Positions 1 to 12,470 of a stretch of 12,470 bases of DNA are shown piece after piece (the stretch's first letter is position 1; every line of letters begins with the position of its first letter). Location of the stretch: positions 1 to 12,470 of the forward strand of contig JBHLME010000131.1 of NCBI GenBank assembly GCA_048938445.1. Direction: 5' to 3'. The translations under genes were made by a program, and so were the position numbers. This DNA is from Promethearchaeota archaeon. Its GTDB lineage: Archaea; Asgardarchaeota; Lokiarchaeia; Sigyniarchaeales; SOKP01. Below the pieces are notes generated by a model. That model was not told the origin of the DNA. It searched no databases and saw nothing but the letters and a program-made list of their open reading frames with translations.

Positions 1-149
1 ATGCAGTAGGAGCAGATATCCTCACAACAGAATGTCCATTTTGTAAGACAAACTTGACTGATGCCAATAATCTCTATGATCATGGGTTAAAAGTTATTGG
101 GTTACTCCAAATGATTGATGAGTACGATTTAATAGAAATTTCAGGATAA
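1..149 (+). CDS. 3' end of a CCG-domain (Fe-S)-binding oxidoreductase (HdrD/GlpC-like); partial at the window edge
   Basis: Not in the ORF track. Manual translation from nt 3 gives AVGADILTTECPFCKTNLTDANNLYDHGLKVIGLLQMIDEYDLIEISG* (TAA at 147-149). 'GADILTTECPFC' matches the terminal CxxC of the CX31-39CCX35-36CXXC (CCG) motif. Confidence 0.85.
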   Translation, partial: AVGADILTTECPFCKTNLTDANNLYDHGLKVIGLLQMIDEYDLIEISG

Positions 150-161
150 TTTAAATATTAA

Positions 162-170
162 TTTTTTTTT
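162..170 (+). terminator. Putative archaeal oligo-T terminator
   Basis: T9 run 12 nt after the stop codon of the CCG-domain gene. The AT-rich background weakens the signal. Confidence 0.45.
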
Positions 171-224
171 CTAGTTATTTACTTATACTTTAATCATCAT
201 AAACTAACTGATATCACTAATTAT

Positions 225-239
225 CGAAAGGTATAAATA
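225..239 (+). promoter_or_regulatory. Putative archaeal promoter (BRE + TATA box) for the plsY-kinase gene
   Basis: CGAAAG immediately followed by GTATAAATA, about 70 nt upstream of the ATG at 310; fits the purine-rich BRE / TATA arrangement. Confidence 0.55.
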
Positions 240-309
240 TTAACCTTACAAAACTACTAATATTAGTAAATTGGGATAAATTTAATTTTAAACATACTAT
301 TGAAAAGCC

Positions 310-1539
310 ATGCAATCAATTCAGTTTTTCGTCAATTTATTTAGTCTAATAATTGGATATTTTTTAGGATCTATTTTACCAGCATATTTTTTTGGTAAGT
401 TAAAAGGTATGGATATCAGAGAAGAAGGTACTCGTAATGCTGGAACTACAAATGCATTTCACGTATTAGGTCTTACATATGCCATTCCAACAGCATTTTA
501 TGATACTTTAAAAGGATTATTTGCAATGCTCATTGCGTACTTTTTAGGTGCGGATTTCTTCTTTGTACAACTAACTGGAATTTTAGTAATTATAGGACAC
601 GTGTTTCCATTTTATATTAATTTTCGTGGAGGTCAAGGTGTTGCTACTGCAACAGGAATTATCCTTTATTATCTATGGATTTATATTTTTAGTGGATTAG
701 GATTAGAAATTTTTTTTGCTATCGGATTTTGTATAATAATCGTGATAATTTTTACATATATAACAAAAATGGGGAGTATTTTACCGATTTTAGTATTTCC
801 GATTCTTGATTTTTCATTATTTGTCTTTTATCCCGAATTGTTGATATATAATTTGTTTTTTACTTTAGTAAGCTTGCATATAATGATTATTGGACTTTAC
901 AAAATTATCACTGAAAAAAAAATAAAAATAGAAGACGAGACATTTTTGTCCCACTGGTGGCGTGTTGCAATAAGACCCCTTGCAATATTATTTATTATTT
1001 TTTATTTTATTATGGGTAAAGGTTTTGCTATAGTCCTCGTTGGTTTGGTCGTCTGTGTTTTTTTGATAATTGATATAACTAGAATCCTTCATAAACGCAC
1101 CAATGAGCTACTTACACAAAGAATTAAGTATATATTTAAGAAAACTGAAGAAAAAAGATTTTCATCAATGACAATCTTTTTGATTGCAACTTTTTTTTCA
1201 ATTCTGTTATTTCAGGAAAATATTGCAATAACAGCTGTGGTTTTTCTCATTTTTGGAGATATATTCAGTAAAATATTTGGCTTGTCTTTTGGACGTCATA
1301 AATTATTTGAAAAAACAGTTGAAGGAACACTAGCTTTTTTTGGAAGTGTCTTGATTAGTGGATATTTTATTTATTTTTCTCTATTACCCACCGAATATAT
1401 TATTTCACTATTAGTTTTATTTTTTGGAGGGCTTATGGCACCAATAGCAGAAATTATTCCAATTGACATTAATGATAATTTTACAATTCCGATATTAAGC
1501 GGAGCAACTATGTTTGTGGCAGTATTTTTTGGATTATAA
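310..1539 (+). CDS. plsY: Membrane protein: PlsY-family glycerol-3-phosphate acyltransferase fused to a C-terminal CTP-dependent kinase domain (phytol/dolichol/DAG kinase; VTE5/Sec59/Dgk1-like)
   Basis: The N-terminal half has the PlsY motifs GYFLGSI..DIREEGTRNAGTTN, DTLKG and GHVFP..FRGGQGVAT. The C-terminal half has GDIFSKIFG..FGRHK..EKTVEGT and DNFTIP, typical of the CTP-transferase-like kinase family. Hydrophobic throughout. Confidence 0.85.
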   Translation: MQSIQFFVNLFSLIIGYFLGSILPAYFFGKLKGMDIREEGTRNAGTTNAFHVLGLTYAIPTAFYDTLKGLFAMLIAYFLGADFFFVQLTGILVIIGHVFPFYINFRGGQGVATATGIILYYLWIYIFSGLGLEIFFAIGFCIIIVIIFTYITKMGSILPILVFPILDFSLFVFYPELLIYNLFFTLVSLHIMIIGLYKIITEKKIKIEDETFLSHWWRVAIRPLAILFIIFYFIMGKGFAIVLVGLVVCVFLIIDITRILHKRTNELLTQRIKYIFKKTEEKRFSSMTIFLIATFFSILLFQENIAITAVVFLIFGDIFSKIFGLSFGRHKLFEKTVEGTLAFFGSVLISGYFIYFSLLPTEYIISLLVLFFGGLMAPIAEIIPIDINDNFTIPILSGATMFVAVFFGL

Positions 1540-1640: not shown

Positions 1641-2045
1641 TTAATCATCCTTTACTAACCATTCTTTAGCATCTTCAATTGAATCAAATGGTTTGGCACC
1701 AATTTTAGAAAACTTATTTACAACATTTAAAAAGATCTTCTTTACCCCAGTTATTCCAAGAACTGCGGTTTTTTTTGAAATTGGTCCTGCAACTTTTCCA
1801 GCATTACTAAAAGCGTCAACAGTTTCTTTTATTGCATAACTTCCTCTAACATCAACAAGCCCTAAGATCTCCGTCTTACCTGATTCCATCGTTAATTTTA
1901 AAATAGCATTAACTAGGGCAGGAAATTTACTCCCTTGAAGATTTCTATAATCATCATAGAGGATTTCTTTTCCTTTATAAGTTATCCAACTCTGGCGCTT
2001 CTTTGCTTCTTCCAAGATATCTTTATCTATGTGGTTCTCAGACAT
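1641..2045 (-). CDS. SpoIIAA-like / STAS-SEC14 domain small protein
   Basis: 134 aa alpha/beta pattern with 'LVDVRG', 'KTAVLG' and a C-terminal 'FDSIEDAKEWL' (F-x-x-x-E-x-A-x-x-W-L) typical of SpoIIAA-like proteins. Confidence 0.65.
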   Translation of the reverse strand: MSENHIDKDILEEAKKRQSWITYKGKEILYDDYRNLQGSKFPALVNAILKLTMESGKTEILGLVDVRGSYAIKETVDAFSNAGKVAGPISKKTAVLGITGVKKIFLNVVNKFSKIGAKPFDSIEDAKEWLVKDD

Positions 2046-2162
2046 TTTACATCAATGACGTAATTATTTATTAAAACGATAATGAATTACATTCATTTAA
2101 ATTTATAGATAAAATAAAATTTGCTTTAAAGATTTCAAAGGAAAAATGATTAAGATTATCGT

Positions 2163-2618
2163 TCAATAAATACCATTATTTTGTTTCTGTTTAATAGGTT
2201 TGAGGACAACGCAAACACGCTCAACACTCTTTACATCACTGCGTCCTCTAAAATTTTCTAATAATGCATCTAGTTCGGTAATTTCTGGAACACGGACTTT
2301 AATCAACACGCCACATTGTCCTGCCAAGAAATATACTTCTTCGCATTGAGGAATGATTTGAGCTTCCCGTAAAAGATCCTTAATTTGAGTTTCTTCCGTG
2401 GGCATAACGGTTACAAATGCCATTATTCCAGAATCTTCCTCTCGACATACCTTGATCGTGAATTTTTCGATAACGTTATCCTCTTGGAGCCTAATAACTC
2501 GTTTTCGAACAGTTGATTCGCTCAATCCAATCTCATCTGCAATTTCGCGATAAGGTCTTCTTGAATCTTCTATCAGCATTTCTAATATTCTTTTATCCTT
2601 TTCATCCATATTTTTCAT
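2163..2618 (-). CDS. Lrp/AsnC family transcriptional regulator
   Basis: MDEKDKRILEMLIEDSRRPYREIADEIGLSESTVRKRVIRLQEDNVI is a classic AsnC-type HTH, followed by a RAM-domain-sized C-terminus. The start may instead be the second Met (2609). Confidence 0.93.
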   Translation of the reverse strand: MKNMDEKDKRILEMLIEDSRRPYREIADEIGLSESTVRKRVIRLQEDNVIEKFTIKVCREEDSGIMAFVTVMPTEETQIKDLLREAQIIPQCEEVYFLAGQCGVLIKVRVPEITELDALLENFRGRSDVKSVERVCVVLKPIKQKQNNGIY

Positions 2619-2648
2619 TTCATTCCCATCCTGTTTCTTTTCATTAAA

Positions 2649-2656
2649 TATATAAA
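2649..2656 (-). promoter_or_regulatory. Candidate TATA box for the Lrp gene
   Basis: TTTATATA on the - strand, 30 nt upstream of the ATG at 2618. It is preceded by a T-run, which could also terminate metF, rather than by a clear BRE. Confidence 0.35.
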
Positions 2657-2702
2657 AAAAAATTATAATTAAATATAAAAAAATATCATAGATATTTAGT
2701 TT

Positions 2703-3671
2703 TTAATAAAAGTCTTTTGCATATTCAGGGTAATCTCCTAATAATGGAGCAAATAGTCTCTCGTATTCTACTGCCATGCAATGTACTCCACTTGCTTTTG
2801 AGTTCTCCTTAATCTCCTTAATGAAAGGTTTAAAGAATTCAACGTTTACTTTATCTAGTGCAGCATATTTTGCCTTTTTATCTCCTTTATTTTCCTTCTC
2901 TGCTGTTTTGAGTGCTTTAAGTAATTCTTTGGGCACGCTTACACCAGGAATATAGTTGTCAAAATACCAAGCTATTCCATGGCTTTTCATGGGAAATACT
3001 CCTAACAGTATTGGCACGTTAAATCTAGATAATTCCTTTATGAATTCTTTTGCTACATCAATATCGAATGCTGTTTGTGTCTGAATGAAGTCAATACCCT
3101 GTTCGACTTTTCTTCCCACTTTAAGGATTTCAGGTTCCATGAATTCTCCCATTGCATTCGGATTCGCGACACAACCATAATTCATCTCAACCTTGCCCCC
3201 AGTTATCTCGTTGCCTTCGTAATCAGTACCTTCATCAATAATTTTTGATAGGAGTTCACAGAACTGAGTGCTATCAATATCATAAGAGGGACGAGCTTTC
3301 TTGTTATCTCCTAGAGCGGTATGATCTCCTGTTAATACGAGAATGTTTTTTAATCCCATATATGCTCCAGCAATCACATCTCCAAATAATGCAACTCGAT
3401 TGCGATCTCTCACAGCTACTTGCCAAACTGCTTCAATTTTAGCATCTCTCTGAACTACATAACTTGGAACTAAAGAAGACATGTATGCATCTCCTTGAGG
3501 TCCATCAGTTACGTTAGCAGCAATTATTCGATTAGTTTTCTTCATTTCTTTGGCAGAATGAATGATTTCAGTCATGTCCATTATTTTCTTAGGTTCGAGC
3601 TCTCCTGTGAATACAAAATGTCCTGCTTCGAGTGCTTTACATAATTTACTATATGCTGGTCGTTTAGGCAT
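2703..3671 (-). CDS. metF: Methylenetetrahydrofolate reductase, flavin-binding subunit
   Basis: Motifs FTGELEP, NVTD, VRDRNR, LVLTGD, FIQTQ..FD and GVHCM. Start revised from 3704 to ATG 3671 (MPKRPAYS): it follows the metV stop as TAA-A-ATG and has GGAGG at 3684-3688. The MRKKRRRRR extension is only the alternative frame of the metV tail. Confidence 0.92.
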   Translation of the reverse strand: MPKRPAYSKLCKALEAGHFVFTGELEPKKIMDMTEIIHSAKEMKKTNRIIAANVTDGPQGDAYMSSLVPSYVVQRDAKIEAVWQVAVRDRNRVALFGDVIAGAYMGLKNILVLTGDHTALGDNKKARPSYDIDSTQFCELLSKIIDEGTDYEGNEITGGKVEMNYGCVANPNAMGEFMEPEILKVGRKVEQGIDFIQTQTAFDIDVAKEFIKELSRFNVPILLGVFPMKSHGIAWYFDNYIPGVSVPKELLKALKTAEKENKGDKKAKYAALDKVNVEFFKPFIKEIKENSKASGVHCMAVEYERLFAPLLGDYPEYAKDFY

Positions 3672-3672
3672 T

Positions 3673-4368
3673 TTATTTCTTCTCCTCCTTCTTTTCTTCC
3701 TCATTAGTGAGTGGTTTATTTATTTGAATATAGGCAGGACTCGTAGCTGATCGATAATCTCGTGCGGGACGATAAACCTTGAATAGATCTAGCCTATTAA
3801 ATTTCTTTAATCTCTTGTAGATCTCTATCCACGCACAAGGATTTTTATAACCGCCAACTTCACACATTCCGTCGACAGTTCCTCCACAAGGTCCATTATT
3901 CAAATGCTTCGCACATCCAGCAATGGGACAAACACCTCCAGTTACTCCTAATAAACAATTTCCACACGTTTCACAGTATTGAATGAAGTTGTTTTCACCA
4001 TTATTTTGCACTCCACCAAATTGGCTATTTTGTGCTGGAAATGTTAAAATCTTATCAGCAACTTTATTGAGCATCACGACTCCCAGACCACAAGCTAATG
4101 ATAAAATTGCTTCATATTCGTCGGTAAATGGTCTTACTGTAGTTGCAGCAATCCTGTCATCACATTGTCTTAAAACAGTGATAGCTTTCCAAGTTAGCTT
4201 TTTGCCCTCAGTTTGATATTTTAATTCTAGGAGCTGTCCAAGAACAATAGCCTCATTGATCGAGCGTGGCGGCTGGCAACAACCATCACAACCCGCGATG
4301 AGAATCTTTTTGTAGTCTTTCACCATTGCGTATAGTTCGTTTATATCTTTTTGTTGCGTAATTATCAT
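3673..4368 (-). CDS. metV: Methylenetetrahydrofolate reductase Fe-S/Zn subunit (MTHFR C-terminal domain protein)
   Basis: GCDGC, RQCD, ACGLG, CETCGNC, CPIAGCAKHLNNGPCGG..C..CAWIEIYKRL. Lies directly upstream of metF; GGAG at 4379-4382. Confidence 0.9.
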   Translation of the reverse strand: MIITQQKDINELYAMVKDYKKILIAGCDGCCQPPRSINEAIVLGQLLELKYQTEGKKLTWKAITVLRQCDDRIAATTVRPFTDEYEAILSLACGLGVVMLNKVADKILTFPAQNSQFGGVQNNGENNFIQYCETCGNCLLGVTGGVCPIAGCAKHLNNGPCGGTVDGMCEVGGYKNPCAWIEIYKRLKKFNRLDLFKVYRPARDYRSATSPAYIQINKPLTNEEEKKEEKK

Positions 4369-4453
4369 ATTACTTTTTCTCCAATTTTTTCATTTTTTTT
4401 TAAATTATTTTGATTAAATTTCCTTTATCATATATTTTTCAAAAAGTTATTAT

Positions 4454-5335
4454 TTAAGTAGTTAATTTTTCAATTAGTTTATCTGGTTTCACGCTTCTTT
4501 GCTTTAAATTTATATCTTCGAGAGATACACCTAAAGCAATTGCCATTATTTCTGGTAGATAAATTACAGGTATATCCAAATCTTTACCTGTCTTTCTTGC
4601 AATTACTTTCTCCTTTCTATCATATTGTGTCACACATGCTGGACAAACAGCTATTAACGCATCAATATCTTCTTCAAGTTCGCATAATTCCGTCATTTTA
4701 TCTTCTACTAATTTCTCACCAATTTCATCTTGTAAGCGGGCACAATAACCACAACATTCAAGTTTATTAGCAAAATCAACTGTTTTAGCACCTAATGCTT
4801 TTAGGATTACATCTATCCTTTCAGGCTTTTCAGGATGGTCAAATTGCATGATTTTACTAGGTCGGACGAGATGACATCCATAATGGACAGCAAAGGTAAA
4901 ATCGTCTAATGGCTTTACAAGTGATTTTTTAATTTTTTCCAGCCATTCAGGTTGACTGAATAATTCTACCATATGGACAACTTTAGTAGTTCCCTTATAT
5001 TCATAGTTTATTTTCTTCAATATTTCATTGATCTTCTTCTTATGTTCTGGATCTTCTTCTAATAAAACACTAACGGTTTTTAGTGTTTCATAACATCCTG
5101 AACAAATTGTCATTACATCATTCCCCATTTTTTCGGCTATTGCTAAATTCCTTGCGCCAAGTGTTAACCACGTGTCTATATTTAGAGATTGTAAGGATAC
5201 GGGTTCCGGACAGCAGCTCACTCCTTCCATCTCCTTTAGATTTATACCTAAAACGCTTGAAACCTCTCGAAATGCTTTTTCTAGGTAAGGTTGCTTTAAT
5301 GGGATATTACATCCTAAAAATATTGCAAAATCCAT
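4454..5335 (-). CDS. hdrB: Heterodisulfide reductase subunit B family protein
   Basis: Two CCG motifs: FLGC..SCCP..CSGC and HYGCH..ECCG..CPAC. The start overlaps the hdrC stop (TAATG). Confidence 0.95.
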   Translation of the reverse strand: MDFAIFLGCNIPLKQPYLEKAFREVSSVLGINLKEMEGVSCCPEPVSLQSLNIDTWLTLGARNLAIAEKMGNDVMTICSGCYETLKTVSVLLEEDPEHKKKINEILKKINYEYKGTTKVVHMVELFSQPEWLEKIKKSLVKPLDDFTFAVHYGCHLVRPSKIMQFDHPEKPERIDVILKALGAKTVDFANKLECCGYCARLQDEIGEKLVEDKMTELCELEEDIDALIAVCPACVTQYDRKEKVIARKTGKDLDIPVIYLPEIMAIALGVSLEDINLKQRSVKPDKLIEKLTT

Positions 5336-5868
5336 TATTTAATCTCCTCCACTTTTTTTAATAATTCTTTCAAACCAGTTTCTTCAAATATGAATTGTAT
5401 TTCATCAAGTTTTGGACCGATTACTTCGGGTAATCCTAACCTTTCTCGTCGTTTGTCAATATTTTTTTTCATTCCTTCTGTATAAGGAATTACAAAGCCA
5501 TTCTCGAGAATAGTTATCACGCTACTAGAGTATTCTTTTGGAATTTTACCTTCTTGTGCAGCCATGCTTCGCAATAAAGCAAGAATAAATGAATAATCTA
5601 CATTTTTTGGACATCGCTCTGTACATCTATGACATAAGGAACAAGTCCAGATTGCTTGACTTGATAGCACTTCTTCTTTAAGTCCTAACAAGCAAGATGC
5701 GACAACCCGATGAGGTTGTAAGTCTACATATTCAGTAACCGTGCATCCAGAACTACACACTCCACATTGAATACATTTAAGCAGCGATTTTGCACCCACT
5801 TTCTGGCTTATTTCGTATCTAAAATTCTTGTCCAACTCACTCGCTTTTTTTGCTAATCTTTGGGTCAT
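5335..5868 (-). CDS. hdrC: Heterodisulfide reductase subunit C
   Basis: Two 4Fe-4S motifs, CIQCGVCSSGC and IWTCSLCHRCTERCP, plus the C-terminal 'RRERLGLP'. Lies between hdrA and hdrB. Confidence 0.95.
   Translation of the reverse strand: MTQRLAKKASELDKNFRYEISQKVGAKSLLKCIQCGVCSSGCTVTEYVDLQPHRVVASCLLGLKEEVLSSQAIWTCSLCHRCTERCPKNVDYSFILALLRSMAAQEGKIPKEYSSSVITILENGFVIPYTEGMKKNIDKRRERLGLPEVIGPKLDEIQFIFEETGLKELLKKVEEIK
5344..5350 (-). promoter_or_regulatory. Shine-Dalgarno site for hdrB
   Basis: GGAGGAG 8 nt upstream of ATG 5335, inside the last codons of hdrC. Confidence 0.7.
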
Positions 5869-5870
5869 TT

Positions 5871-8800
5871 TTATGCCACCTCCTTTGCTTTGATAATTTT
5901 ATCACCTTTTTTAGTTCTTGGTCCTAATTCTTTAACCTTTTCAACAAATTCGGTTACTACTTGGGAAAATCGTTTTCCTTCACTTGCAGACACCCATTCA
6001 AGGCGATATCGTTCAGGATTAATTCCCACTTTATGAAGTATATCCTTTAACTCATTGTACCTATTTAACATGTCATAATTTCCTTCTAAATAGTGGCAAT
6101 CTCCAATATGACAACCTCCAATAAAAACACCATCTGCTCCTTCTAAAAATGCTTGTAAGATGAAGCTTTTTGGAATTCTACCTGTACACATTACTCGTAT
6201 CGGTCTTATATTCGTAGGATATTGGAATCTGCTTACACCACACGTATCTGCTCCCGCATAACTACACCAATTGCATAAAAATGCAACTATACGCGGTCTT
6301 TCATCCACATAATCACCTTTAACTGCTTCAGCAATCATTGGATAAATTTGTTCATCAGCAAAATGGCTCATAGTAATTGCACCTGCTGGACACGCAGCGG
6401 CGCAATCACCACATCCCTTGCACAATAGTGGATTGGATTCTGAGACTAAGACCTCATTATCGAAATTTACTCCAATTGCTCCAAAGTTACATACTTTTTC
6501 ACATTCTTGACATGCAATACATAAAGCTGGATTAACTACTGAAACCAATGGTTCATTCTCAACTTCACCTGAAATGAGTGGTATTAATGCATGTGCAGCA
6601 GCTCCCCTCGCTTGTGAAATGGAATCTGCAATGCCTTTTGGCCCATGACAAGTGCCTGCCAGATATATTCCATCTGTGGCAAAATCAACAGGTCTTAGCT
6701 TGACATGTGCTTCCAAGAAGAATCCTTTCTGGTCACGAGCACATTTTATTAATTCTCCTAATAATTTGGTATCATGAGGAACTAATGGAGTAGAAAGGAC
6801 TACTTTATCAGCATCGATCGTCAAGTCAACTTGTGTCAAAATATCAGTAACTTTCACTGATAATTTTCCATTTTTTTTCTCTACTTTAGGATATTCATTG
6901 AATCTGATATAATTAACGTTTTCCCTGGCTTTCCAATAGTATTGCTCTTCATCTGCTCCTACTCTAATATCACGGTATAAAACAAAAATATTAGAATTTG
7001 GATAGTTCTCTTTTACATAAAGAGCATGTCTTATCGATTCAGAACAACAAATTAATGAACAATAAGTAAAACCATTTCCTCCTTCGGGCTGCCTTGAACC
7101 AACGCAGTGAATGAAAACAAGCGTTTCTCCATCTTTAAGTTTATTGTCTCTTAGCTTTTCTGAAAATTCAAGTTGGGTCATCACCTTGTCGCTCATTCCC
7201 TTCTCGCCATAGTAATACCATCCCTCTGGTTTATACTCATAAGCTCCAGTTGCCACCACGATTACACCGACATTCAAATCTATATCTTTCTCTTTATTTT
7301 TTACCTTTATCTTGAAATCCCCAATCGATCCTTTAACATCAACCACTTCAGAATTAAGATAAGTCACTATATTTTTATGAGCATTAAATTCATTTATTTT
7401 TTCTTCCAGAAATTGTTTAGAATCAATTTTATCGAAGTTAATCTTATAAATTAGATTTAATTGTCCACCTAATTTATCTTTATTTTCCACCAAGTGAACT
7501 TTGAATCCCTTATTAGCAATTTCAATAGCCGAGCTAATTCCAGTAATTCCTCCTCCTATAACGAGAGCTTCCGGTACAACATTACCTTTAATTTTTATTT
7601 CTGGTTTTTGATATTGCACACGTGCAACTCCCATCCTTATGAGATCTTTTGCTTTATCAGTGGCTCTTTTATTATCATGCATGTGTACCCAGGAGTCTAA
7701 TTCCCTGATGCTTACGAAATTAAATAAATACTCATTCAAGCCTGCCTCTCTGATCGTCTTTTGAAAGAGTGGTTCATGAGTTCTTGGAGTACATGCCGCT
7801 ACAACAATTCTATTTAAGTCAAGCTCTTCTATTTTTTCTTTTATGATATCTTGGGTTAATTGAGAACAGCTATATTTATTTTCCATGCTATAAACCACAT
7901 TAGGAAGGGTTTTAGAATACTCTACCAATTCTGGAACATCCATATAACCAGCAATATTAATTCCACACCTACAAATAAATACGCCTATTCTTGGTTCATC
8001 AAGAGGATTAACTATTTTCAAAGGTGGGAGTTCTACCTTTGTTTCTTCATCGCTTAGTGGTACTGCATGAGTTGCAGCTAATGCTGCAGCACCTCCTGCT
8101 TTCGCAACAGAATTAGCGATATCATCTGGAGATTGACAAGATCCAGAAACATATATACCTTCTTGTGTGGATCTTAAATCTTCCGTTGAATCCTTAGTCT
8201 TAAAAAATCCTAATTCATTCGTTTCAATGTTTAGAATTTTAGCTAATTTATCCGCATCTTTTCTAGGAGTCACGGCATTCGCAAGTACAACTAAATCAAA
8301 TTCACTAACTTCAACATCACCCGTGTCTAAGTTAGCATGTTTAACAAATAGGTTTTTATTTTCTGTATTTTCTCTAATATCACCTGGTATTCCCCTATAA
8401 TAGGTGAGACCATATTCCTCTTTAGCTCGCTCAATAAATTCTTCTTGATTTTTTCCTATAACCCGAATGTCATTGAAAAAGATCGTAACACTTGTATCAG
8501 GTGCATGTTCTCGCGTTATTACTCCTTCCTTAGTTTGGTACATGCAACAAAATTTTGAACAATAAGCACATAAGTCTTCATTTCTAGAGCCTACACAACT
8601 AATAAATGCTATATTATGTGCATGTTCACCATCTGAAGGACGCAATAATTCTCCCCCAGTGGGACCAGAGGCACTTAACAACCGTTCATATTGCATTGCT
8701 GTAATTACATTAGGATATTCTCCATAATGATACCTGTCTAATAATGAAGCATCGAGTTGATCGAATCCAGTAGCAACAATAATTGATGCGATATCGTATT

Positions 8801-9350
8801 CTATCACTTCATCTTTATCATCCCAGTTTATTGCACCAGCTTCACATTCTTTCTCACATAATTTACAAGCATTCTTGGTAAGATAAAGGCATTTTTCAGC
8901 ATCTATAACTGCTTTTCTTGGAACTGCTTGAGGAAATGGAATATATATTGCTTGTCGATTACCCATGCCTTCTTCAAATTCATTAGGGATTTTCTTCATT
9001 GGACATTTTTCACTACAAGCACCACACCCAGTACAAGCATCCCAATTAACATATTTTGCTTTTTTCCTAATTTTAACCTTGAAATCTCCTGCCTTTCCCT
9101 TGACTTCTTGTACTTCAGAATAAGCAAGAAGTTCAATGTTAGGATGTCTACTTGATTCTACCATCTTTGGTGCTAAAATACAAATAGAACAGTCTAAAGT
9201 AGGAAATGTCTTGTCTAATTGTGCCATTCTCCCTCCTACCGAAGAAGTTTGTTCAACAAGTATGACTCGGTATCCCTGATCCGCTAAAGTGAGACTAGCT
9301 TCAATACCGCTAATCCCCCCCCCAATTACCATTATATTACTACTTGTCAT
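5871..9350 (-). CDS. hdrA: Heterodisulfide reductase subunit A-like polyprotein: two tandem HdrA FAD modules plus C-terminal ferredoxin and a fused MvhD [2Fe-2S] domain
   Basis: Module 1: GGGISG, GGRMAQLDKTFPTLDCSIC, inserted ferredoxin, CVGSR..YCSKFCC. Module 2 from about aa 452: RIGVFICRCG, AACTP, GGGITG, CVGSR..YCSLICC, CIACQECEKVC/CKGCGDCAAACP. MvhD from about aa 1018: FLCNWCSYAGAD, RVMCTGR, GCHIGDCHY. Confidence 0.95.
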   Translation of the reverse strand: MTSSNIMVIGGGISGIEASLTLADQGYRVILVEQTSSVGGRMAQLDKTFPTLDCSICILAPKMVESSRHPNIELLAYSEVQEVKGKAGDFKVKIRKKAKYVNWDACTGCGACSEKCPMKKIPNEFEEGMGNRQAIYIPFPQAVPRKAVIDAEKCLYLTKNACKLCEKECEAGAINWDDKDEVIEYDIASIIVATGFDQLDASLLDRYHYGEYPNVITAMQYERLLSASGPTGGELLRPSDGEHAHNIAFISCVGSRNEDLCAYCSKFCCMYQTKEGVITREHAPDTSVTIFFNDIRVIGKNQEEFIERAKEEYGLTYYRGIPGDIRENTENKNLFVKHANLDTGDVEVSEFDLVVLANAVTPRKDADKLAKILNIETNELGFFKTKDSTEDLRSTQEGIYVSGSCQSPDDIANSVAKAGGAAALAATHAVPLSDEETKVELPPLKIVNPLDEPRIGVFICRCGINIAGYMDVPELVEYSKTLPNVVYSMENKYSCSQLTQDIIKEKIEELDLNRIVVAACTPRTHEPLFQKTIREAGLNEYLFNFVSIRELDSWVHMHDNKRATDKAKDLIRMGVARVQYQKPEIKIKGNVVPEALVIGGGITGISSAIEIANKGFKVHLVENKDKLGGQLNLIYKINFDKIDSKQFLEEKINEFNAHKNIVTYLNSEVVDVKGSIGDFKIKVKNKEKDIDLNVGVIVVATGAYEYKPEGWYYYGEKGMSDKVMTQLEFSEKLRDNKLKDGETLVFIHCVGSRQPEGGNGFTYCSLICCSESIRHALYVKENYPNSNIFVLYRDIRVGADEEQYYWKARENVNYIRFNEYPKVEKKNGKLSVKVTDILTQVDLTIDADKVVLSTPLVPHDTKLLGELIKCARDQKGFFLEAHVKLRPVDFATDGIYLAGTCHGPKGIADSISQARGAAAHALIPLISGEVENEPLVSVVNPALCIACQECEKVCNFGAIGVNFDNEVLVSESNPLLCKGCGDCAAACPAGAITMSHFADEQIYPMIAEAVKGDYVDERPRIVAFLCNWCSYAGADTCGVSRFQYPTNIRPIRVMCTGRIPKSFILQAFLEGADGVFIGGCHIGDCHYLEGNYDMLNRYNELKDILHKVGINPERYRLEWVSASEGKRFSQVVTEFVEKVKELGPRTKKGDKIIKAKEVA
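5877..5883 (-). promoter_or_regulatory. Shine-Dalgarno site for hdrC
   Basis: GGAGGTG 8 nt upstream of ATG 5868, encoded by the final K-E-V codons of hdrA. Confidence 0.75.
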
Positions 9351-9826: not shown

Positions 9827-10507
9827 ATGAAAATTGTAGTAACTGGTGCACTTCATTCGGGTAAATCTAGCTATGTAAAATATTTTGATACAAAAGCAAT
9901 GAATATTGAAGCGGCTGGAAGTGATAAGAAGTTCTATACCGTAGGAATGGATTTAGCCACTTTTCAAATAGAAGCCTTTAAAATATTCTTATTTGGAACT
10001 CCTGGATTACTAAGAATGCAAATAATGAGAGACGTCATTGCTGATGGGGCAGATGGTGTGATTTTTTTACTTGATTCAACTCGTCCTGAAAGTGATGAAG
10101 ATGCAATGCTGATACTACATTCTTTAAAAGAACACATCCCTCCGGATATTCCTATTATTTTTTGTGCTAATAAACAAGATGAACAATCTGCTCGCTCTTC
10201 TGAACAAGTTAAAGCTCAAAATCAGCTCCCTGATAATGCAAAAATATTTCCTATTAGCGTTAAGAACAGATTAAATATGAATGAATCACTCAAGTATATA
10301 GTAAATCTTGTTTTTGAGAAATATGAAGATATTCTTGAAATTCTTCGCAAATATGAAGATGATCTTGAGGGATTAGGAAAACAATTAAACATGAATACTG
10401 AAGAATTACAAGAATACCTTCGTTCTCTTGAGATAAAGAGATTTATTACTATTGATAGAGAAAATAAAACTATCGAGGTCATAGAAGGATTAAAAAAACT
10501 AATTTAA
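9827..10507 (+). CDS. Small Ras-superfamily GTPase (MglA/CvnD-like G3) with probable C-terminal winged-helix extension
   Basis: G1 GALHSGKS, G2 TVGMD, G3 FGTPG, G4 NKQD, G5 ISVK. The last ~60 aa (LEGLGKQLNMNTEELQEYLRSLEIKRFITIDRENKTIEV) have an HTH plus beta-hairpin pattern. Confidence 0.88.
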   Translation: MKIVVTGALHSGKSSYVKYFDTKAMNIEAAGSDKKFYTVGMDLATFQIEAFKIFLFGTPGLLRMQIMRDVIADGADGVIFLLDSTRPESDEDAMLILHSLKEHIPPDIPIIFCANKQDEQSARSSEQVKAQNQLPDNAKIFPISVKNRLNMNESLKYIVNLVFEKYEDILEILRKYEDDLEGLGKQLNMNTEELQEYLRSLEIKRFITIDRENKTIEVIEGLKKLI

Positions 10508-10630
10508 TACTTTTTGATAATGAAGAAATCTTACCTTGTTTATCTTCTTGAATATAAAATATACCATTCATTTATAGCGATATAACACTCATTGATAAAT
10601 ATAAAAAACTATTTTTTATTATTTATTATA

Positions 10631-11680
10631 ATGTCAACAAGATCCGAGGATACATTAATCTTTTATGCTCTCACACCAGGACATTACCAACCTGATGAGA
10701 TGAGAATCATTTATGACTCATTAAAGGAATTTTGTGATAAAAAGAAGAATATTGATAACAGCGACAGGTTCAACATTGTTTTATTTCAAGAAGATGGCCC
10801 AAATTATTTAGAAGATTTTACTCTTAATCCAGAAAACATTCTTATTGCGTTGGAATCCTTGGAACCTATGATTGTGAGAGCTAACATGTCTGGAGGTATT
10901 ATGGTCTCAGCTACATTCATTATAGATGTCTTTAAAAAAATCCCAAACAAGTGCTTTCGAATGATAATTTTAACAGATAATTATACCCACGAGATCCCTG
11001 ATATATATATACCGGTTTTAGATAATATTCTCGAAAAAATTAAAGATATGCCTTTAATTGTAGACATACTCAGAATTAATGTTAATAACTATGAAGAAGA
11101 TCTTAAGTTATCAGAATTAATTAAAAAGACTCGAGGAAAACTTCATGAAGTTCAAAATTTAAATGAATTATCTCTGATTCTTGATCTTTTGGCTGAAAAA
11201 AAAACTTTTTCTACTTATTCGTTATCAGATGACATGTATCCCGATGAAATACCTATTGAAAACCACTTATTTTATAAAAATTTAGCAGATGATCCGATCT
11301 TAAAAATAGATAAACAGACCTGTTCAATCTGCTTTAAAAAAGATAATAATGCAATTGTCCAATGTCCGAATTGCGAAACAACTTCACATAAAATATGTTG
11401 GGCATTATGGTCTAAAAATAGCAATATAGGGATATTTAACATCTTTCGATGCCATACATGTTTTCACCTACTCAAGCTTGATGATGATTTCGTTTACATG
11501 GTCCATACAGGACAATTAAAAGCAATAGAAGAAATCAAAGTTGATGTAATGGATTTACATGAATTTGAAGAGAGTATAGAAGCAGAAGATGGTCCAAAAA
11601 TCATTGCCGTGGAAGATCCGATGGCAATGTTATTTGATAAGAATGATGATGATATAAGAATCATTGATGATGAAAATTGA
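10631..11680 (+). CDS. vWA-like domain protein with C4HC3 (RING/PHD-like) zinc finger and acidic tail
   Basis: vWA-like strands DRFNIVLF, RMIILTD and IVDILRI; finger C-x2-C-x10-C-x2-C-x4-H-x2-C-x17-C-x2-C at 11321-11461. Start revised from TTG 10592 to ATG 10631 (MSTRSEDT): the extra 13 codons are AT-only-looking sequence containing a TATA-like element at about 10595-10607. Confidence 0.78.
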   Translation: MSTRSEDTLIFYALTPGHYQPDEMRIIYDSLKEFCDKKKNIDNSDRFNIVLFQEDGPNYLEDFTLNPENILIALESLEPMIVRANMSGGIMVSATFIIDVFKKIPNKCFRMIILTDNYTHEIPDIYIPVLDNILEKIKDMPLIVDILRINVNNYEEDLKLSELIKKTRGKLHEVQNLNELSLILDLLAEKKTFSTYSLSDDMYPDEIPIENHLFYKNLADDPILKIDKQTCSICFKKDNNAIVQCPNCETTSHKICWALWSKNSNIGIFNIFRCHTCFHLLKLDDDFVYMVHTGQLKAIEEIKVDVMDLHEFEESIEAEDGPKIIAVEDPMAMLFDKNDDDIRIIDDEN

Positions 11681-11718
11681 TTATATGATTTTTACTTGAT
11701 ATTGATTGTTGGTGTAAA

Positions 11719-11726
11719 TTTATAAA
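11719..11726 (+). promoter_or_regulatory. Candidate TATA box for the Roadblock-GTPase gene
   Basis: TTTATAAA about 68 nt upstream of the proposed TTG start at 11794. Confidence 0.35.
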
Positions 11727-11793
11727 TTAGAGTAATAAAATTATTTTATTAACTCAAAAAAATAGAAACTCTAAAAAAAAAGGTAATTGTTTT

Positions 11794-12470
11794 TTGACTT
11801 ATTTCGATAAAAAAAAGCTTCAAGCCCTTTTGAAATGGTATAAACAAGAGGTAGGAATAGATCTCATTGCAGTTCTAGTTGTTGATAGGACTGGTTTAGT
11901 TGTCGATTTTTTAACTAAAATTCCCGAAAAAGCAGATGAAAAAAAATTTATTGGAGCATTTAGCGCATTAGCTGATCTAATTCTTAAAAAAATAACATCA
12001 GATTATGATTTAGGAACTTTTGGAGCGGGAACTTTTGACACTGATCAGTATCGATTTATATTTTGCGAAGCTGGACCTGAATTTGTGTTTGTAACTGTGT
12101 TAAATGCACTTTCTACAATTGATCCATACTTCCCCTATGCGTTTATAGGGGCTGAGAAAATAGCTCGTATTTTTGATGGGCGTCCTGTAAGTCCCGTAAT
12201 CCCAAAAATTAAGACAGATTATGGAATAAAAAAAATGCATAGAAAAATTGACATGCTCCAAAAAGTAAAGTTTGTTTCTGACGATTATCTATGTAAACTC
12301 AGTTTTATAGGAGATAATGGTGTAGGAAAGACCAGTATCGTCCAACGTTATGTGAACAATATTTTCCACTTGGATTACCGTGCAACGATAGGAGCTTTCA
12401 TTACGAAGAAGATATGTAAATTTGAAGGACTTGCTGATACCCAAGTGCGTTTCGTGATTTGGGATATTGC
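11794..12470 (+). CDS. Roadblock/LAMTOR-like domain fused to a Rab-like small GTPase; partial, runs off the window
   Basis: Not in the ORF track. The frame is open from 11731 to the window end; likely TTG start at 11794 with AGGT at 11781-11784. Translation: MTYFDKKKLQALLKWYKQEVGIDLIAVLVVDRTGLVVDF..FIGAFSALADLILKKI..RFIFCEAGPEFVFVTV (Roadblock pattern), then YLCKLSFIGDNGVGKTSIVQRYVNNIFHLDYRATIGAFI..VRFVIWDI (G1, G2 and start of G3). Confidence 0.9.
   Translation, partial: MTYFDKKKLQALLKWYKQEVGIDLIAVLVVDRTGLVVDFLTKIPEKADEKKFIGAFSALADLILKKITSDYDLGTFGAGTFDTDQYRFIFCEAGPEFVFVTVLNALSTIDPYFPYAFIGAEKIARIFDGRPVSPVIPKIKTDYGIKKMHRKIDMLQKVKFVSDDYLCKLSFIGDNGVGKTSIVQRYVNNIFHLDYRATIGAFITKKICKFEGLADTQVRFVIWDI

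Follow-up and report, generated by a model that had tools for sequence, protein, structure and literature searches.

A divergent CTP-type lipid-kinase-like domain joined to a putative PlsY-derived transferase whose acceptor site is rewired, in an Asgard archaeon

In a Promethearchaeota archaeon, a single membrane protein appears to combine a PlsY-derived transferase, whose acceptor site has been rewired, with a divergent lipid-kinase-like domain of the type that uses cytidine triphosphate (CTP). The protein is encoded in a stretch of 12,470 nucleotides, hereafter the window, which is the entire contig JBHLME010000131.1 (C69 in our set) of assembly GCA_048938445.1 and has a G+C content of 28%; the source genome (G000) comprises 4.63 Mb in 256 contigs. 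An intact open reading frame (ORF), running from ATG to stop at positions 310..1539 of the forward strand, specifies 409 amino acids. The AlphaFold2 (AF2) model of this two-domain, polytopic membrane protein has a predicted local distance difference test (pLDDT) score of 86.7 and a predicted template modelling (pTM) score of 0.81. The best reading that we can offer is a tentative one: the lipid phosphate made by the kinase half, most likely acyl-phosphate derived from a free fatty acid, would serve the PlsY-like half to acylate an acceptor other than glycerol-3-phosphate (G3P). The gene product is best explained as an accessory two-step membrane enzyme, not as a housekeeping G3P acyltransferase. 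The original prediction, made from the letters of the window alone, had already described a PlsY-family half and a CTP-type lipid-kinase-like half within one ORF, and this architecture stands, with a PF02660 match in the N-terminal half and a slightly altered dolichol-kinase CTP motif in the C-terminal half.

The N-terminal half (amino acids 1-205, positions 310..924, forward strand) has seven predicted transmembrane helices and is PlsY-like by profile and by fold. The Pfam model PF02660 (PlsY) matches amino acids 15-189 with an E-value of 1.8e-34 and 119.6 bits, for a cut-off of 24.1, and the Pfam scan of the window protein gave no other credible family. The match spans profile positions 1-147 of 164, leaving the final 17 positions, which hold motif 3, unmatched. 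The NCBIfam equivalog TIGR00023 scores 103.2 bits, under its cut-off of 137.2, and all seven other listed PlsY-type NCBIfam models likewise stay under theirs. The solved Aquifex PlsY (5xj5) matches the N-half with an E-value of 2.7e-17 by sequence and 7.2e-23 with the family profile. A Foldseek search of the PDB with the whole AF2 model, which is dominated by the PlsY half and finds CdsA first at rank 35 (E 3.2), returned PlsY entries in its top five places (E 7.9e-07 to 2.3e-05, TM-score on the target 0.63-0.69), the best of them being 5xj7 (E 7.9e-07, 0.69).

According to PMC5700162, the acyl-phosphate site of Aquifex PlsY comprises His92, Thr41, which binds the carbonyl group, the main chain of residues 104-107 and Asn37, which stabilises the oxyanion. 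The chain numbering of 5xj5 is that of the article plus one, and this offset was applied when residues were mapped through the HMMER alignments. In the window protein, Asn37 corresponds to N43, Thr41 to T47 and His92 to H97, the phosphate-hole loop is kept as G107-G108-x-G110, and the DxxKG motif of PlsY is also present. N43 and T47 lie in the motif 1 region (amino acids 37-51, REEGTRNAGTTNAFH, positions 418..462 (+)), which also contains T41 and H51, and the His and loop glycines lie in amino acids 97-112 (HVFPFYINFRGGQGVA, positions 598..645 (+)), both placed by alignment to 5xj5_A. The acyl-phosphate donor site of PlsY is thus retained in the N-half. It thereby resembles the Aquifex enzyme (PDB 5XJ5-5XJ9; PMC5700162) in its seven-helix fold, its equivalents of Asn37, Thr41 and His92, its GGxG phosphate hole and its DxxKG motif, and differs from it in the T/H/Q clamp described below, the missing Asn180, the unmatched motif 3, the additional C-terminal domain of about 200 amino acids and the lack of any PlsX or Fak partner found in the source genome.

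The phosphate of G3P is held in the Aquifex enzyme by a clamp of Ser35, Arg45, Lys104 and Asn180, the pocket being completed by Ser142 and by His177 of motif 3, which binds the 2-hydroxyl group; alanine changes in the clamp lose more than 92% of the activity, while S35T leaves 17% (PMC5700162). HMMER and MAFFT alignments place T41 at the position of Ser35, H51 at that of Arg45 and Q109 at that of Lys104 in the window protein. The canonical motif 3 stretch HRxNIxRLxxGxExK reads HIMIIGLYKIITEKK here, and its site is the end of the seventh helix (amino acids 190-205, HIMIIGLYKIITEKKI, positions 877..924 (+)), as located by the MAFFT alignments A3 and A4 and the end of the PF02660 match. In none of three registers, from two MAFFT alignments and the one set by H190, does an Asn fall at the Asn180 place, which is taken by I193, G195 or I200 instead. 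The register of His177 is ambiguous, the candidates being H190, M192 and Y197. By this mapping, the G3P phosphate clamp is replaced in the N-half.

The same division is seen across the family, for which residues were counted in 105 fused ORFs from 81 loci, namely the window, a second copy in the source genome and 79 loci from a scan of one genome per species (101 relatives, 80 of them kept; most are Asgard metagenome-assembled genomes (MAGs)). On the donor side, H97, G107, G108 and G110 are found in all 105, D65 and K68 in 103 each, T46 in 102 and N48 in 101; position 43 is N in 82, I in 15, V in 3, Y in 2 and a gap in 3, and position 47 is Ser or Thr in 55. At the clamp, position 41 is T in 69, S in 15 and D in 14, the Arg45 place (position 51) is occupied by K, R or H, and the Lys104 place (position 109) by Q in 82, R in 12, K in 7 and E in 4. 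The Asn180 place, taken as position 200, is I in 73, V in 12, F in 9, L in 6 and N in a single member, and H190 is His in 49 and Tyr in 40. In the C-half, D255 is present in 103, R258 in 102, E280 and D317 in 104 each, G324 in 103 and G328 in all 105; further on, K335 and G339 are present in 104 each and E338, E381, D389 and N390 in 103 each. By these counts the donor side and the kinase motif are conserved across the family and the G3P clamp is not, the kinase motif being under strong constraint.

The original prediction had taken the N-half for a working PlsY that converts G3P, or glycerol-1-phosphate (G1P), to lyso-phosphatidate and is fed by the fused kinase, giving a self-contained route to ester or hybrid lipids. 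The PF02660 score far over its cut-off and the PlsY fold agree with this, as does a PlsC-type protein elsewhere in the source genome, in which two acyltransferase domains (PF01553; 90.4 and 95.4 bits) share one 581-amino-acid frame (contig C68, 760-1938 (+), loci L003/L004). Bacterial PlsY is moreover reported to take both G1P and G3P (PMC13400652), and the replacements are not all drastic, given the residual activity of the S35T enzyme (PMC5700162). Nevertheless, we regard this explanation as improbable, and its premise of an ordinary PlsY was not borne out: the clamp residues are replaced, with Lys104 changed to Q and Asn180 to a hydrophobic residue in most of the family, PF02660 stops at position 147 of 164 and TIGR00023 remains under its cut-off.

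Comparison with canonical copies bears on the same question. Another Asgard family holds a stand-alone PlsY of 219 amino acids (L099) that scores 165.8 bits over profile positions 1-164 and has GSGN, R, GGKG and HRDNIGRL intact. Because this Asgard protein keeps all the clamp residues, the loss of the clamp is specific to the fused form, which speaks further against an acyltransferase acting on G3P. Two stand-alone PlsY copies of a further Asgard family are intermediate, having GGRG and a Q at the His place. All nine bacterial genomes with the fusion also encode a canonical stand-alone PlsY, in frames of 194-233 amino acids that score 169.9-183.6 bits and match practically the whole profile (1-164), starting at position 1 or 2 and ending at 163 or 164. 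Their fused copies score 101-120.4 bits and, like the window protein, leave motif 3 of the Pfam model unmatched, the profile matches ending at 148-160. PlsX is likewise present in 9/9 (311.5-375.5 bits). Because every carrier keeps canonical PlsY and PlsX, the fusion in bacteria is an accessory enzyme beside the standard pathway, with a job unlike that of PlsY or PlsX; the premise of G3P acylation is weakened again by this result.

The C-terminal half (amino acids 206-409, positions 925..1536 (+)) has seven predicted membrane helices and is described as CTP-type lipid-kinase-like from its phmmer relatives, their source names and an AF2 model of pLDDT 93.0 and pTM 0.88. The dolichol-kinase CTP motif is given as DXXAXXXGXXXGX8KKTXEG in a 2026 review (PMC13586052). 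The corresponding region of the window protein, amino acids 317-339 (DIFSKIFGLSFGRHKLFEKTVEG, positions 1258..1326 (+)), which was delimited by that motif and by conservation in the 105 relatives, offers D317, both glycines (G324 and G328), K335 with the following T, E338 and G339, with Ser (S320) in place of Ala, a spacer of 6 and one Lys. The Ala is found at this position in the consensus of the stand-alone kinase-like proteins (C-half alignment A2, 42 rows). It is followed by an acidic motif, E381...D389-N390, in amino acids 381-394 (EIIPIDINDNFTIP, positions 1450..1491 (+)), whose D and N (189 and 190 in the numbering of the half) are invariant in all 42 rows of A2. The half begins with an amphipathic segment, W216-W217-R218-V-A-I-R222 (positions 955..975 (+)), in which W216 and W217 are invariant in the fusion alignment A1 and R218 and R222 are conserved to at least 90%. 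R218-V-A-I-R222 is reminiscent of a 'charged clamp', R-K-x-x-H, put forward in a preprint on the strength of a modelled Plasmodium prenol kinase, PolK; in the stand-alone consensus the segment reads R-K-x-x-R, several rows having His as the final residue.

A phmmer search with amino acids 201-409 against 1.84 billion representatives gave 2541 matches at E<=1e-3, of which 723 reach 1e-10 and 41 reach 1e-30. Among the best 150, custom hidden Markov models recognised 60 proteins with PlsY and kinase-like domains, 84 with the kinase-like domain alone (some of them fragments) and 6 with another N-terminus. JGI labels the stand-alone relatives, of about 190 amino acids, dolichol kinase, and NCBI labels them diacylglycerol/polyprenol kinase family protein, others being hypothetical; JGI also gives some of them the name PlsY, presumably through transfer of the label from fusions. 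On the basis of the motif, the domain size and the names of the relatives, we place the C-half, as a candidate member, in the kinase branch of the CTP_transf_1 superfamily. It is like the CTP-dependent polyprenol and prenol kinases (Sec59/DOLK, VTE5, FOLK and Plasmodium PolK) in its polytopic core of about 200 amino acids, in a motif that resembles DxxAxxxGxxxG...K-T-x-E-G and in a possible basic clamp where the domain begins; it differs from them in its Ser for Ala, its shorter spacer, its one Lys, its lack of Pfam or NCBIfam matches and its position behind a PlsY-like domain. The yeast diacylglycerol kinase Dgk1 is a CTP-dependent lipid kinase of this type. Motifs of the VTE5/Sec59/Dgk1 type had been claimed from the letters alone, and they can indeed be read there, the CTP motif being slightly altered; they are invisible to hmmscan with either Pfam or NCBIfam.

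Several results on the C-half weigh against our reading, since the family assignment is built on the motif, on source names and on weak matches. Pfam run on amino acids 201-409 alone found no family even at E<=10 save two chance-level rows, PF01148 (CTP_transf_1) giving 0 matches, and no NCBIfam model matches the half. PF01148 matches 6 of the 42 rows of A2 at E<=0.01, the window row not being among them. The A2 profile finds the CDP-diacylglycerol (CDP-DAG) synthase TmCdsA (4q2g) at E 0.015 and in the motif region only (chain residues 148-212), two designed repeat proteins scoring better by chance. Foldseek with the model of the C-half gave 0 matches at E<=0.001; the best four are TmCdsA chains, at the weak level of E 0.27-0.49, probability 0.66-0.80 and TM-score 0.29-0.41. 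The nearest clusters in the Atlas (scores 0.96 to 0.95) are a hypothetical one with PF01148 on 21% of its members, one of diacylglycerol/polyprenol kinases and one named for a cytidylyltransferase domain.

These matches raise the alternative that the C-half is a CdsA- or CarS-like cytidylyltransferase making a CDP-activated lipid, given that the sole solved relative is TmCdsA (PDB 4Q2E/4Q2G), with which the half shares the first motif, GDxxAxxxGxxxGRxK...KSxEG, and that PF01148 and the Atlas cluster mentioned above both bear the cytidylyltransferase name. We consider it very improbable. The similarity is confined to this first CdsA motif, and inspection of amino acids 206-409 revealed no second one (PGHGG-like; ...KD.GKTLPGHG in TmCdsA) and no HGG. 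PF01864 (CarS) matches neither the whole protein nor the C-half, the source genome has two separate CarS genes, and the domain measures about 200 amino acids, like the stand-alone relatives with kinase names. The view that the half is not CarS, on which the original prediction relied, is thereby upheld.

The host is an Asgard archaeon, because the nearest database proteins carry the source names Promethearchaeota and Lokiarchaeota, the source genome encodes GGGPS (190 bits) and the two CarS genes (on contigs C28 and C51), and Ras/Arf/Roc-type small GTPases are coded in the window itself; the earlier impression of an archaeon was right, and the contig is not a bacterial one. The fused architecture is not an accident of assembly, because the best 120 of the relatives are equally long (377-421 amino acids) and an independent contig flanks the junction. 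This 271-nucleotide contig, from a study other than the likely source, lies to either side of the domain junction with 0 differences; the repeat filter passed over bases 909-1013, and the junction is within that stretch. In a second study, contigs of three runs span parts of the fusion gene, for which no RNA data set was listed.

In a word-indexed search, 481 proteins reached E<=1e-3 among 8000 candidates scored. The best 120 of these have 53-74% identity to the window protein and cover 93-100% of it; their precomputed domain is PF02660 alone, and those with names are called glycerol-3-phosphate acyltransferase. Nine bacterial records are among the kept relatives of the species-level scan (Latescibacterota, Caldithrix, Actinomycetota, Aminicenantes, four labelled 'uncultured bacterium' and one 'bacterium'), in line with the statement in the original prediction that similar fusions occur in some bacteria. 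In a sample of Promethearchaeota, 106 of 151 genomes have some match. Full-length matches above 400 bits occur, among the matches listed, in the source genome and 15 of 25 other genomes of its own family, a one-family distribution with which the submitters' labels Thor-, Odin-, Hod- and Hermodarchaeota on relatives disagree.

In a FastTree phylogeny of the 100 fused ORFs of at least 370 amino acids (5 shorter ones were dropped), the window protein pairs with that of locus L012 (76% identity, support 100), and several Asgard paralogue clades are seen. The nine bacterial rows form one clade (support 99) whose sister is a pair of Asgard rows (97), at a point where long branches meet. A tree of the C-half, made from the window and 139 of its 150 best matches after removal of 11 with fewer than 150 profile positions, splits with support 100 into a clade of 53 rows, including 44 stand-alone and 6 fused proteins, and one of 87 rows, with 52 fused, 31 partial or short and 4 with another N-terminus. 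This topology would fit a single main origin of the fusion. Pairwise identity averages 50.5% in the N-half and 55.0% in the C-half, 28 columns in each are at least 95% conserved, and the divergences of the two halves correlate with r 0.70 (4950 pairs of the 100 rows); the halves are about equally constrained. The fused genes also occur in tandem, in up to four copies. At five loci (L052, L054, L059, L060 and L086), three or four of them stand between the genes of transcription factor B (TFB) and prolyl-tRNA synthetase (ProRS); these copies come from different paralogue clades, and some have K or R at the Lys104 place.

The second fusion of the source genome (contig C145, locus L002, 883..2100 (-)) is an intact frame of 405 amino acids, 35% identical to the window protein. 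It is the sole member among the 105 without the kinase motif (I317, E324, N381 and Y390); its identity to the window protein is 27% in the C-half and 42% in the N-half, and its branch length in the tree is 1.35. It lies between a GT87-type glycosyltransferase gene (E 1.4e-08; 2136-3452 (-)) and a gene for a flavin adenine dinucleotide (FAD) amine-oxidase/CrtI-like protein (3-803 (-)). GT87 family members use polyprenyl-phosphate sugars.

The inventory of the source genome, which is 96.5% complete with 8.2% contamination so that absences mean 'not found', gave 0 matches to PlsX (PF02504; control positive in 9/14 genomes) and 0 to DegV/FakB (PF02645; control positive in 6/14). The statement that the window lacks a PlsX- or FakB-type supplier is accordingly correct, and it extends to the whole genome. 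No canonical PlsY was found there, both PF02660 matches being the two fusions, and neither a stand-alone PF01148 gene nor DUF92/VTE6 was matched (0 each, with positive controls). Fe-ADH_2 was matched weakly three times (28-31 bits) and GpsA-N once, also weakly (22.8 bits).

Several of these results can be read in terms of isoprenoids, the C-half being a polyprenol, dolichol or prenol (geranylgeraniol or phytol) kinase for carrier-lipid or prenol salvage and the PlsY-like half binding or scaffolding the lipid phosphate, or acting on prenyl phosphate. We judge this rather unlikely, but it has more than one argument in its favour. The stand-alone relatives bear dolichol kinase and diacylglycerol/polyprenol kinase names, the motif of the C-half fits that of dolichol kinases as given in PMC13586052, and the window gene is the only intact kinase-family member found in the source genome, PF01148 giving no match and the other copy being motif-dead. 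The kinase site is steadier than the transferase site across paralogues, the motif-dead paralogue adjoins the GT87-type glycosyltransferase gene, and the host makes isoprenoid lipids, as indicated by GGGPS and CarS. On the other hand, the carbonyl-binding Thr and the oxyanion Asn are kept, which would be needless for a prenyl phosphate, and the second kinase of the VTE6/DUF92 type that would complete prenol salvage was not found in the source genome. Moreover, many complete genomes of the same family lack the gene, which argues against an essential carrier-lipid step, and the isoprenoid explanation offers no reason for the conservation of the fusion or for the in-step divergence of its halves. 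A two-kinase prenol salvage in the style of VTE5 and VTE6 was marked down on the DUF92 result.

The predicted topology, with helix limits taken from two AF2 models, places 20 Lys and Arg residues in seven cytoplasmic segments and 0 in seven outer segments. PlsY motif 1, the GGQG loop, the WWR linker, the KTxEG loop and the E...DN loop are all predicted to be cytoplasmic in these models. After its seven helices the PlsY half ends on the inner side of the membrane, the side on which the kinase-like domain has to start, and the pTM of the whole model is a hint of a fixed arrangement of the halves. Access to the active site of PlsY is from the cytoplasmic leaflet (PMC5700162).

In the two-step enzyme that we tentatively favour, the kinase-like half would phosphorylate a membrane lipid with CTP, the likeliest target being the carboxyl group of a free fatty acid, which would yield a labile acyl-phosphate. 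This product would be handed directly to the adjoining PlsY-like half, which would move the acyl group to a hydroxyl acceptor without the phosphate of G3P. The fused kinase would in this way stand in for the PlsX or FakA/FakB supplier that was not found in the source genome. An acyl donor is favoured over a prenyl one because the carbonyl-binding Thr and the oxyanion Asn are retained, and also because no PlsX or FakB was found, acyl-phosphate is labile and fusions of PlsY with DegV have been published. The two-step proposal is further favoured by the replaced clamp, the constancy of the kinase motif, the correlated divergence of the halves, the predicted location of both sets of conserved residues on the cytoplasmic face and the presence of canonical PlsY and PlsX in every bacterial carrier. 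That the kinase half might supply the phosphorylated donor was an idea of the original prediction, and we infer that it is the best available reading of that half.

The PlsY-DegV (FakB-like) fusions are those of Bellilinea caldifistulae and Thermanaerothrix daxensis, for which channelling of the unstable acyl-phosphate has been argued (PMC5700162). Like them, the window protein has a domain tied to acyl-phosphate supply at the C-terminus of PlsY; unlike them, with their soluble fatty-acid-binding partner, it would have a membrane kinase-like domain of another superfamily. From their Pfam search for PlsY fusions, Li et al. (2017) report DegV ones only (PMC5700162); that the present fusion was missed fits, because Pfam is blind to the C-half.

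To the weak detection of the C-half must be added other points that count against the proposal of an acyl-phosphate-making kinase coupled to a retargeted transferase. The members of the kinase family described in the two sources consulted (PMC13586052; preprint) act on alcohols, namely dolichol, phytol, farnesol and geranylgeraniol, and cultured Lokiarchaeota are reported to have shown archaeal lipids only. The bacterial carriers, all of which already own PlsX, would have no need for a new source of acyl-phosphate. We know of no member of the kinase family that phosphorylates a carboxylate. One paralogue group has I, V or Y in place of the oxyanion Asn (20/105) with the kinase motif intact, and because the Asn is lost where the motif stays, the kinase, rather than the transferase, may be the constant functional core. 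The two halves are not always joined: in other Asgard families, separate PlsY-like frames (about 220-258 amino acids) or kinase-like frames (about 210-440) lie on different contigs, and seven genomes of the window's own family, 89-100% complete, have no match at all, and several at 98-100% completeness are without a copy.

The gene neighbourhood points the same way. Across the 81 loci, the recurrent neighbours are a soluble 248-amino-acid protein without a Pfam match (56 loci), TFB (50), ProRS (47), a BD-FAE hydrolase (32), a LarA-like protein (29) and an FAD oxidase (18). The conserved neighbours are thus housekeeping genes such as TFB and ProRS, with no lipid genes among them, and we read their recurrence as synteny shared among relatives, not as a lipid operon. 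The window itself has no recurrent neighbours of the TFB/ProRS type. Around the bacterial fusions, the ten neighbours scanned in seven of the nine loci are heterogeneous and give no pointer to lipids.

The most specific form of our proposal, in which the C-half is a membrane-embedded, CTP-dependent fatty-acid (carboxylate) kinase feeding a PlsY-derived transferase retargeted to a non-G3P acceptor, is doubtful on present sequence evidence. The substrate of the C-half may then be a carboxylate, unlike the alcohols phosphorylated by prenol kinases. Should it prove true, acyl-phosphate would have a third biological source besides PlsX and FakA/FakB, and the dolichol-kinase family would gain a chemistry new to it; scavenged fatty acids could then be ester-linked, in Asgard archaea and some sediment bacteria, to a lipid or metabolite that has yet to be seen.

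Asgard PlsY homologues are well known and have repeatedly been cited as a hint of bacterial-type ester lipids in the archaeal ancestor of eukaryotes (PMC6431249, PMC6737245, PMC9385802, PMC13400652). Their function 'remains to be elucidated' (PMC9385802). The available portions of these four articles make no mention of the double length, the kinase-like second half or the replaced G3P residues, and no description of the fusion was found in the accessible parts of the published literature on PlsY with dolichol or phytol kinase or with Asgard archaea. The gene should not be taken for the opening step of membrane synthesis of the bacterial type. If the reading given here is true, it would be no evidence for G3P ester membranes in Asgard archaea, and phylogenies that treat the fusion as a PlsY orthologue would compare unlike enzymes. 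The fusion also offers a direct test for an undescribed CTP-based lipid activation.

Other arrangements of the kinase-like domain were observed in Asgard genomes. In one from another family (L095 1503-2792 (-), G067:C7), it stands behind a HAD-type hydrolase in a frame of 429 amino acids (PF12710 E 1.9e-15, PF01148 E 1.2e-4), and frames of 430-441 amino acids with the same kinase-like C-terminus recur among the genomes of that family. At a further locus (L096 1147-2229 (+), G077:C124), about 170 amino acids without a Pfam match precede the domain; similar frames of 361-368 amino acids occur in several genomes of the window's family, though none was found in the source genome. In a bacterial MAG (L089), the fusion is preceded on its own strand, at a distance of 36 bp, by a gene of the acetate-kinase family (4888-5955 (+); PF00871, E 8.2e-25, partial), the only such case in the seven bacterial loci scanned. 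Enzymes of this family yield short-chain acyl-phosphates.

Within the window, the neighbours of the fusion gene are an AsnC-type regulator, a MetF-like reductase with HdrA/B/C- and MvhD-like partners, Ras/Arf/Roc-type GTPases and a prokaryotic RING protein. A 134-amino-acid ORF at 1641-2045 (-) is convergent to the fusion gene and has a weak SpoIIAA/STAS-like match (E 0.0039); a member of the same cluster lies in the same place at L012. The row of genes at 2703-9350 (-) encodes a MetF-like protein (333 amino acids), a DUF5981 'MTHFR C-terminal' protein (231), a CCG-domain HdrB-like protein (293), a 4Fe-4S HdrC-like protein (177) and an HdrA-like flavoprotein ending in MvhD/FlpD (1159), and it looks like a module of the MetFV-HdrABC-MvhD type. 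Finally, at 9827-12468 (+), a 362-amino-acid prokaryotic RING finger protein is encoded between two genes for Ras/Arf/Roc-type GTPases; all three are typical eukaryote-like genes of Asgard archaea.

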